Origin: Escherichia coli
GTDB lineage: Bacteria > Pseudomonadota > Gammaproteobacteria > Enterobacterales > Enterobacteriaceae
Strand: one strand, 5' to 3'
Length of the DNA: 64,000 nt
Assembly: GCF_001677475.2 (NCBI RefSeq)
Contig: NZ_CP015229.1
Under the pieces are notes generated by a model. The model saw nothing but the letters and a program-made list of their open reading frames with translations, searched no databases and was not told the DNA's origin. The translations under genes and the position numbers were made by a program. Shown here one piece after another: positions 44,051 to 44,430 of this stretch (within the stretch, counting starts at the first letter, position 1; each line of letters starts with the position of its first letter).

Positions 44051-44430
44051 AACAACCTCTCTTATAATTATGGGTATTCTACGGAAACAATATACCGTGG
44101 TGAAGCTAATTTACTCGATTGCTGCGATGACTACCTCCGGGGGACAAACCTTATGTAAATACTATGGTCCTGCGGTGATGATTTGTATGTGATACACAGC
44201 AACATTTCGAGATATTCATACGGCATCTAATACTTATTTAATTCTGGTTAAAATACAGACAGATAACAAGATGAATATTCTTAATGTTTACGTTAAAAAT
44301 GTTTAATATTATTTAATAGTTGTTAATTTGAATACTTCAATAATGTTATATTTCCTGATAATCATTTGCAGGCAAAATGTTTTCACTCTTAAATGAGTAT
44401 TTATTCTCATAAATCGAAAAAGGATTCATT

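Follow-up and report, generated by a model that had tools for sequence, protein, structure and literature searches.

The AT-rich ypfM–yffB gap of Escherichia coli as a probable divergent regulatory region

The most AT-rich spot of the window, by which is meant the whole 64,000-nucleotide stretch of Escherichia coli DNA that was analysed, lies at positions 44051-44430, between ypfM and yffB. It raises the question whether this segment encodes a product of its own or whether its signals belong to the genes on either side. An initial annotation had named three possibilities: binding by H-NS, complex promoters, and a small RNA or peptide. As described below, the first two stood, mostly on evidence that had already been published, and the third did not. 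The segment is very probably the divergent regulatory region of ypfM and of yffB-dapE-ypfN, without a gene of its own. Known biology explains the most AT-rich spot of the window, and this outcome matters little beyond bookkeeping; by-products of the analysis are a candidate yffB promoter at 44344-44352 and a strongly conserved box upstream of ypfM promoter P2.

Location and base composition of the gap

The coding sequence of ypfM, annotated in RefSeq, occupies 43991-44050 on the minus strand and specifies a protein of 19 amino acids (MIERELGNWKDFIEVMLRK), while yffB starts at 44431 on the plus strand. The segment 44051-44430 is thus the entire 380-bp divergent gap between the two genes. To the right, yffB is followed by dapE and ypfN; to the left, acrD ends at 43892. 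The DNA is collinear here with that of MG1655, without indels, and window coordinates were converted to NC_000913.3 coordinates by adding 2546816. No annotated features were found inside 44051-44430 in the MG1655 RefSeq record.

G+C made up 30.5% of the gap; the mean over the window was 53.8%, with an sd of 4.2 among 380-bp windows, and just 0.055% of the 380-bp windows in the 64 kb were this low. The global minimum (29.7%, start 44146) also lies here, which bears out the earlier statement that the segment is far more AT-rich than its surroundings. The yffB-proximal 230 bp (44201-44430), the core of the AT-rich DNA, contained 23.5% G+C. In the equivalent MG1655 stretch, the counterpart of the gap (31.1% GC) was joint lowest among the 25 gaps that measured 80 bp or more, a place that it shared with the prophage gap intZ-yffL, and the remaining divergent gaps ranged from 37.6 to 47.8% GC. 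The long A/T runs of the initial annotation were present as mixed A/T tracts of up to 17 nt (44302-44318) and not as homopolymers, which did not exceed 5 nt. Its statement that the gap contains no long ORF needs a qualifier, in that eight ATG-initiated ORFs of 11-40 codons were found inside the gap. This number was not above chance, since 2000 dinucleotide shuffles of the gap gave 5.2 ± 1.8 ATG ORFs with a minimum of 11 codons and 10% of the shuffles reached eight.

Among 5426 E. coli genomes, 5425 contained the gap, with a sequence identity of 95-100%, and the order acrD-ypfM-yffB was kept in nearly all Enterobacteriaceae loci that were fetched. Its length was approximately 380-390 bp in most loci from Escherichia, Citrobacter, Enterobacter, Leclercia and Lelliottia. 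In all 75 loci compared, the ypfM–yffB gap was poorer in G+C (28-49%) than the downstream coding DNA (48-62%), with Escherichia as the most extreme case.

Transcription towards ypfM and a conserved upstream box

The YpfM peptide was nearly invariant, both over the 75 loci and across the Enterobacteriaceae. It was also recognisable in loci from Erwinia, Dickeya and Yersinia, it is now covered by Pfam family PF28148, and in Lelliottia nimipressuralis the ypfM stop codon has been lost and the ORF extended. The protein has been seen by mass spectrometry (PMC12529367). In the space that separates the acrD stop (43892) from ypfM, a terminator scan detected a G+C-rich hairpin with T-runs (43897-43932), which is likely to be a bidirectional intrinsic terminator at which the small ypfM mRNA ends. 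This hairpin is spanned by a match to the Rfam family STnc250 (RF01409; 43892-44011, minus strand), which covered the full length of the model (37.5 bits, E = 2e-05) and scored below the gathering threshold of 42 bits. In Salmonella, STnc250 is the Hfq-associated ypfM mRNA of approximately 220 nt that encodes the 19-amino-acid YpfM (Sittka 2008, PMC2515195). Because syntenic position and ypfM content agree, the E. coli transcript was regarded as the orthologue of STnc250 despite the sub-threshold score. Both lie at the same locus, on the same strand and between acrD and yffB; the ypfM mRNA differs from the segment under study in that most of it lies to the left of 44051-44430, with only its leader and promoters inside.

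Three minus-strand transcription starts in or adjoining 44051-44430 were reported by Romero 2014 (Table S2, PMC4681348), whose U00096.2 coordinates were converted to window coordinates by subtracting 2544838. Our promoter scan gave a single site, the minus-strand TTCACC-17-TAGAAT (44076-44104), here called P1, whose -10 and -35 elements were kept across genera; identical ypfM hexamers are printed in Table 1 of Shimada 2014 (PMC3946193). A class II start at U00096.2 2588907-08, corresponding to 44069-70, lies 6-7 nt past this -10 (PMC4681348). The ypfM leader that extends from P1 (44051-44070, minus strand) forms a conserved alignment block and contains the strong Shine-Dalgarno (SD) sequence AGAGAGG, with an anti-SD duplex of -9.1 kcal/mol. 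The second promoter, P2 (44153-44166, minus strand), is marked by a class I start, a category that combines a leading edge of transcription with TAP enrichment, at U00096.2 2588991-95, i.e., at 44157-44153 (PMC4681348). Its -10 sequence is CATAGT (44166-44161), no -35 could be recognised, and the -10 region, A(C/A)TATG, was kept in the alignment. The third start, a class II, TAP-enriched 5' end at U00096.2 2588877, corresponds to 44039 on the minus strand (PMC4681348). Lying 12 nt into the coding sequence of ypfM, it may represent either a nested start or an artefact of processing.

Upstream of P2, comparison of the loci showed a conserved box at 44185-44206, in which TGTGA (44188-44192) is followed, after six nucleotides, by GCAAC and ATT, and which recurred in loci L003-L082 (e.g., L005:2747-2770). 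Of the 75 loci, 57 contained it in the form TGTGA-N6-GCAA(C/T)ATT; in these it stood 135-151 nt away from the start codon of ypfM and 208-698 nt away from that of yffB. The fixed distance to ypfM and the variable distance to yffB indicated that the box belongs to ypfM. Its TGTGA was invariant in the alignment, and its centre, at 44195.5, falls at -40.5 or -41.5 relative to a P2 start at 44154 or 44155. In these respects, a promoter without a -35, an invariant TGTGA and a site centred 40.5-41.5 bp from the start, P2 resembles class II CRP-dependent promoters. One half of the box is a perfect CRP half-site; P2 differs from this class in its second half-site (GCAAC or GCAAT), which matches TCACA at two of five positions and yet is conserved. 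A by-eye count gave 13 of 22 matches to the 22-bp CRP consensus over the whole box. Conservation of so poor a second half-site suggests a factor other than CRP, or an overlapping site. We propose, from sequence comparison, that the box is a candidate site for an activator of P2.

The box was also considered as a putative marbox: it is like the 15-mers of a Salmonella study of MarA, but the offset of its AAA element is one base off the 20-bp marbox consensus, and the motif of that study lies elsewhere. That study placed a MarA ChIP peak inside the Salmonella ypfM–yffB gap (PMC10268841); by eye, in the alignment, the motif of the peak corresponds to approximately 44235-49 of the window, and it had no exact match in Salmonella locus L083.

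The yffB-dapE-ypfN promoter and leader

The gap alignment comprised 26 sequences, from Escherichia, Citrobacter, Enterobacter, Leclercia, Lelliottia, Klebsiella and other genera. To the right of the ypfM module, just two conserved islands remained in it: (A/G)TGTTATATT at 44343-44352 and AAAAGGATTCA, the ribosome-binding site of yffB. The first island contains an extended -10 element on the plus strand (44344-44352, TGtTATATT), with a hexamer (44347-44352) identical to TATAAT at five of six positions and a TG one base upstream of it. No -35 match was found at a spacing of 16-18 bp. Of 79 loci, 32 contained the exact 10-mer RTGTTATATT, separated from the start codon of yffB by 65-109 nt, and the extended -10 was kept in Escherichia, Salmonella, Citrobacter, Enterobacter, Leclercia, Lelliottia and others.

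In the Salmonella loci, which were fetched via the YffB protein, a distance of 104 nt separates TGTTATATT from the start codon of yffB. A yffB transcription start at -97 has been reported for Salmonella and was used for a yffB::gfp fusion (Froehlich 2016, PMC5137417); this start is the 8th nucleotide after the -10, with 7 nt between. The published start lies at the right distance from TGTTATATT, which identifies the conserved element as the yffB promoter in Salmonella. By homology with that start, E. coli yffB transcription would begin at approximately 44358-60, with a leader of approximately 72 nt (71-73). The predicted 5'UTR (44358-44430, plus strand) contains the SD sequence AAGGA (44420-44424) within the invariant AAAAGGATTCA, and the yffB anti-SD duplex was -5.4 kcal/mol. 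The start sites of Romero 2014, a set of limited sensitivity that also lacks an acrD start, include no forward yffB start, so the predicted E. coli start rests on homology.

A different yffB promoter, TTCATA-16-TTTAAT at 44215-44242, was predicted by Shimada 2014 (PMC3946193). This site is not the element that is conserved across genera, which is instead the extended -10 approximately 110 bp downstream. The extended -10 at 44344-44352 fits the Salmonella start site and is, in preference to the hexamers of the SELEX catalogue, the best yffB-dapE-ypfN promoter candidate. With its TGtTATATT, the lack of a -35 and A/T-rich DNA from about -40 to -140, it resembles extended -10 (TGn) sigma70 promoters. 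It differs from promoters of the UP-element type in that the upstream A/T-rich DNA is kept in composition and not in sequence, and a UP contact is putative.

In Salmonella, the small RNA SdsR represses a yffB fusion (PMC5137417). For E. coli, the best duplex with nucleotides 1-35 of SdsR reached -16.5 kcal/mol (null, -11.8 ± 3.0; p about 0.07) and involved TGCAGGC (44367-44373), a sequence that neither E. albertii nor Salmonella retains. Putative SdsR pairing in E. coli was not used in the model. Expression of yffB was 2.6-fold up in a Salmonella fur mutant (PMC3212961). A Salmonella yffB Fur box, which is a prediction only and lies on the reverse strand at -35 to -18 from the ATG, overlapping a palindrome, was not adopted. 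The palindrome itself (44393-44410 in the window) had been considered as a leader hairpin, since pairwise comparison hinted at compensatory changes. RNAalifold on 27 genera, with the last 48 nt of the yffB leader aligned, gave no consensus pair or structure, and the hairpin was rejected. Fold z-scores of the two leaders and of the spacer between the promoters (0.66, 0.70 and 0.02) showed no unusual stability, and structured RNA in these segments was likewise rejected.

The AT-rich spacer and alternative readings of the gap

Between the two control modules lies an extremely AT-rich spacer (44207-44343), in which little conservation could be aligned beyond Escherichia; it contains the TTCATA-16-TTTAAT of Shimada 2014 and has received IS1 insertions in two strains. 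In genomic SELEX, the ypfM–yffB spacer bound sigma70 holoenzyme and was marked 'HNS' (Shimada 2014, Table 1, PMC3946193). The published H-NS binding was observed in vitro, at the resolution of the whole spacer, so that H-NS and RNA polymerase bind somewhere in the gap; 44207-44343 is the probable seat of this binding. The 'HNS' mark supports the earlier suggestion of an H-NS-bound region, and that of complex promoters agrees with the published minus-strand starts, the sigma70 SELEX result and the conserved yffB extended -10. Like the type-A spacers with an HNS mark in the SELEX list of Shimada and Ishihama, the gap is divergent and very AT-rich, with one promoter per direction. The list includes the ypfM–yffB spacer itself, and there is no difference in kind; compared with the other catalogued spacers the gap is an AT-rich extreme (23.5% GC over 230 bp), and the yffB hexamers printed for it differ from the extended -10. 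That the gap is a divergent promoter region that binds RNA polymerase and H-NS, with mapped ypfM starts, is already known.

No enrichment of the high-affinity H-NS motif (sequences like TCGATAAATT) was found in the gap, which contained one match with two mismatches; the 64-kb window contained 60 matches, against 49 ± 8 expected. AA/TT dinucleotides in the gap showed no periodicity of 10-11.5 bp, with 94% of shuffles equalling the observed signal, and intrinsic curvature through A-tract phasing was dropped on this ground. The most economical reading places the function of the spacer at the level of composition, as A/T-rich DNA upstream of a -35-less promoter and as a site of H-NS occupancy, and not in any discrete element that it encodes.

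In the preferred reading, the left 156 bp of the gap (44051-44206) are leader and promoter DNA of ypfM. P1 initiates ypfM transcription at 44069-70 and P2, with its -10 but no -35, at 44153-57, the latter probably through a factor bound to the TGTGA…GCAAYATT box near -41. In the other direction, the extended -10 (TGTTATATT) would start the mRNA of the yffB operon near 44358-60; its leader of approximately 72 nt, with the conserved AAGGA as ribosome-binding site at its end, is a target of SdsR in Salmonella. The approximately 140 bp between these control modules evolve freely except for staying AT-rich, a composition that would suit upstream contacts by the alpha-CTD at a -35-less promoter as well as H-NS binding, and that may also attract IS1.

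A more elaborate scheme, in which relief from H-NS fires an additional forward promoter (e.g., at 44215-42) within the Escherichia-specific spacer and a short ORF in the resulting long yffB leader is read as a lineage-specific uORF or de novo micropeptide, while the box separately serves as a YpfM-activator operator, was considered very improbable. The ORF concerned, ATGAATATTCTTAATGTTTACGTTAAAAATGTTTAA (MNILNVYVKNV*; 44271-44306, plus strand), is present as initially annotated, with 11 codons and without an SD sequence; its best anti-SD duplex was +0.4 kcal/mol (yffB, -5.4; ypfM, -9.1). Counted from the predicted yffB start, it spans approximately -88 to -53 and, being upstream of that start, falls outside the corresponding transcript. 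If the promoter predicted by Shimada at 44215-42 were used, the ORF would lie within a long yffB leader.

On that basis the ORF could be a translated micropeptide or a regulatory uORF of yffB, expressed from TTCATA-16-TTTAAT with a start near 44249. Translation of small ORFs without an SD sequence can occur in A/U-rich RNA that lacks structure, and the ORF segment is unstructured (fold z = 0.02). TTCATA-16-TTTAAT is the best yffB promoter match of Shimada 2014 (PMC3946193) and is kept in E. albertii. However, it is a sequence prediction only, Romero 2014 lists no forward start, and the geometry from -10 to start is not kept in Salmonella or Citrobacter. The ORF was identical in seven E. coli strains; at the local diversity of 3.5%, zero variable sites in 36 nt are expected approximately 28% of the time. 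Its length is also at chance level, with 98% of shuffles containing at least one plus-strand ATG ORF of 11 codons or more. In the closest outgroups, a divergent Escherichia (L003) and E. albertii (L004), the ATG is replaced by AAG or CAG and the TAA by CAC or CAA, and 5-6 of the 11 residues are changed; in Salmonella and Citrobacter the region could not be aligned. In the accessible part of the Stringer 2021 sORF supplement there was no entry at 25910xx-25911xx and no 'MNILNV' peptide. Short SD-less ORFs in such AT-rich DNA should not be taken for genes unless conservation or ribosome data support them. This one, with no SD sequence, a chance-level length, a position upstream of the yffB core promoter and a start and stop that are lost in outgroups, looks like a chance ORF, a by-product of the AT-rich composition, and its translation as a micropeptide or uORF was judged highly improbable.

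Little credence was likewise given to the possibility that the AT-rich segment is a horizontally acquired, xenogeneic remnant silenced by H-NS. Such an origin would be in line with a G+C content that is the lowest of the window and tied with that of a prophage gap, with the 'HNS' SELEX mark and with the presence of IS1, which in two E. coli strains has inserted into the AT-rich core (L091:1749-2710; NZ_CP148034.1). In strain 81, where narQ, acrD, ypfM and the gap up to approximately 44220 are missing, IS1 lies directly upstream of a retained 44221-44430, with an intact yffB extended -10 and leader. Against a foreign origin stand the occurrence of the gap in all but one of the E. coli genomes, the synteny, similar gap length and AT-richness across Enterobacteriaceae loci, and the conserved promoter elements on both flanks; the annotation of the segment shows no ORF, repeat or signature of a mobile element, and the alignment suggests that the spacer has diverged gradually, in step with the species tree.

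AT-rich gaps beside small-protein genes have yielded small RNAs, and the neighbouring ypfM mRNA was itself first catalogued as the Hfq-bound 'sRNA' STnc250. The earlier idea that the gap encodes a small RNA did not hold up, and an independent small RNA on either strand of the AT-rich core is highly unlikely, given that 44051-44430 contained no intrinsic terminator, only chance-level Rfam matches (E 5.9-10) and no unusually stable fold (z 0.0-0.7), that 44221-44340 lacks sequence conservation beyond Escherichia, and that the known minus-strand starts at 44070 and 44157 both run into ypfM.

Elsewhere in the window, positions 1 to approximately 21000 were not collinear with MG1655 at a fixed offset. 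MG1655 carries the 6.8-kb cryptic prophage CPZ-55 inside its eut operon, which may be absent from the present strain. After the ypfM–yffB gap, the next most AT-rich place in the window was 28898-29107 (200-bp minimum, 27% GC), which maps to the beginning of eutS together with the eutS–maeB gap; that gap precedes the first eut operon gene on its upstream side.
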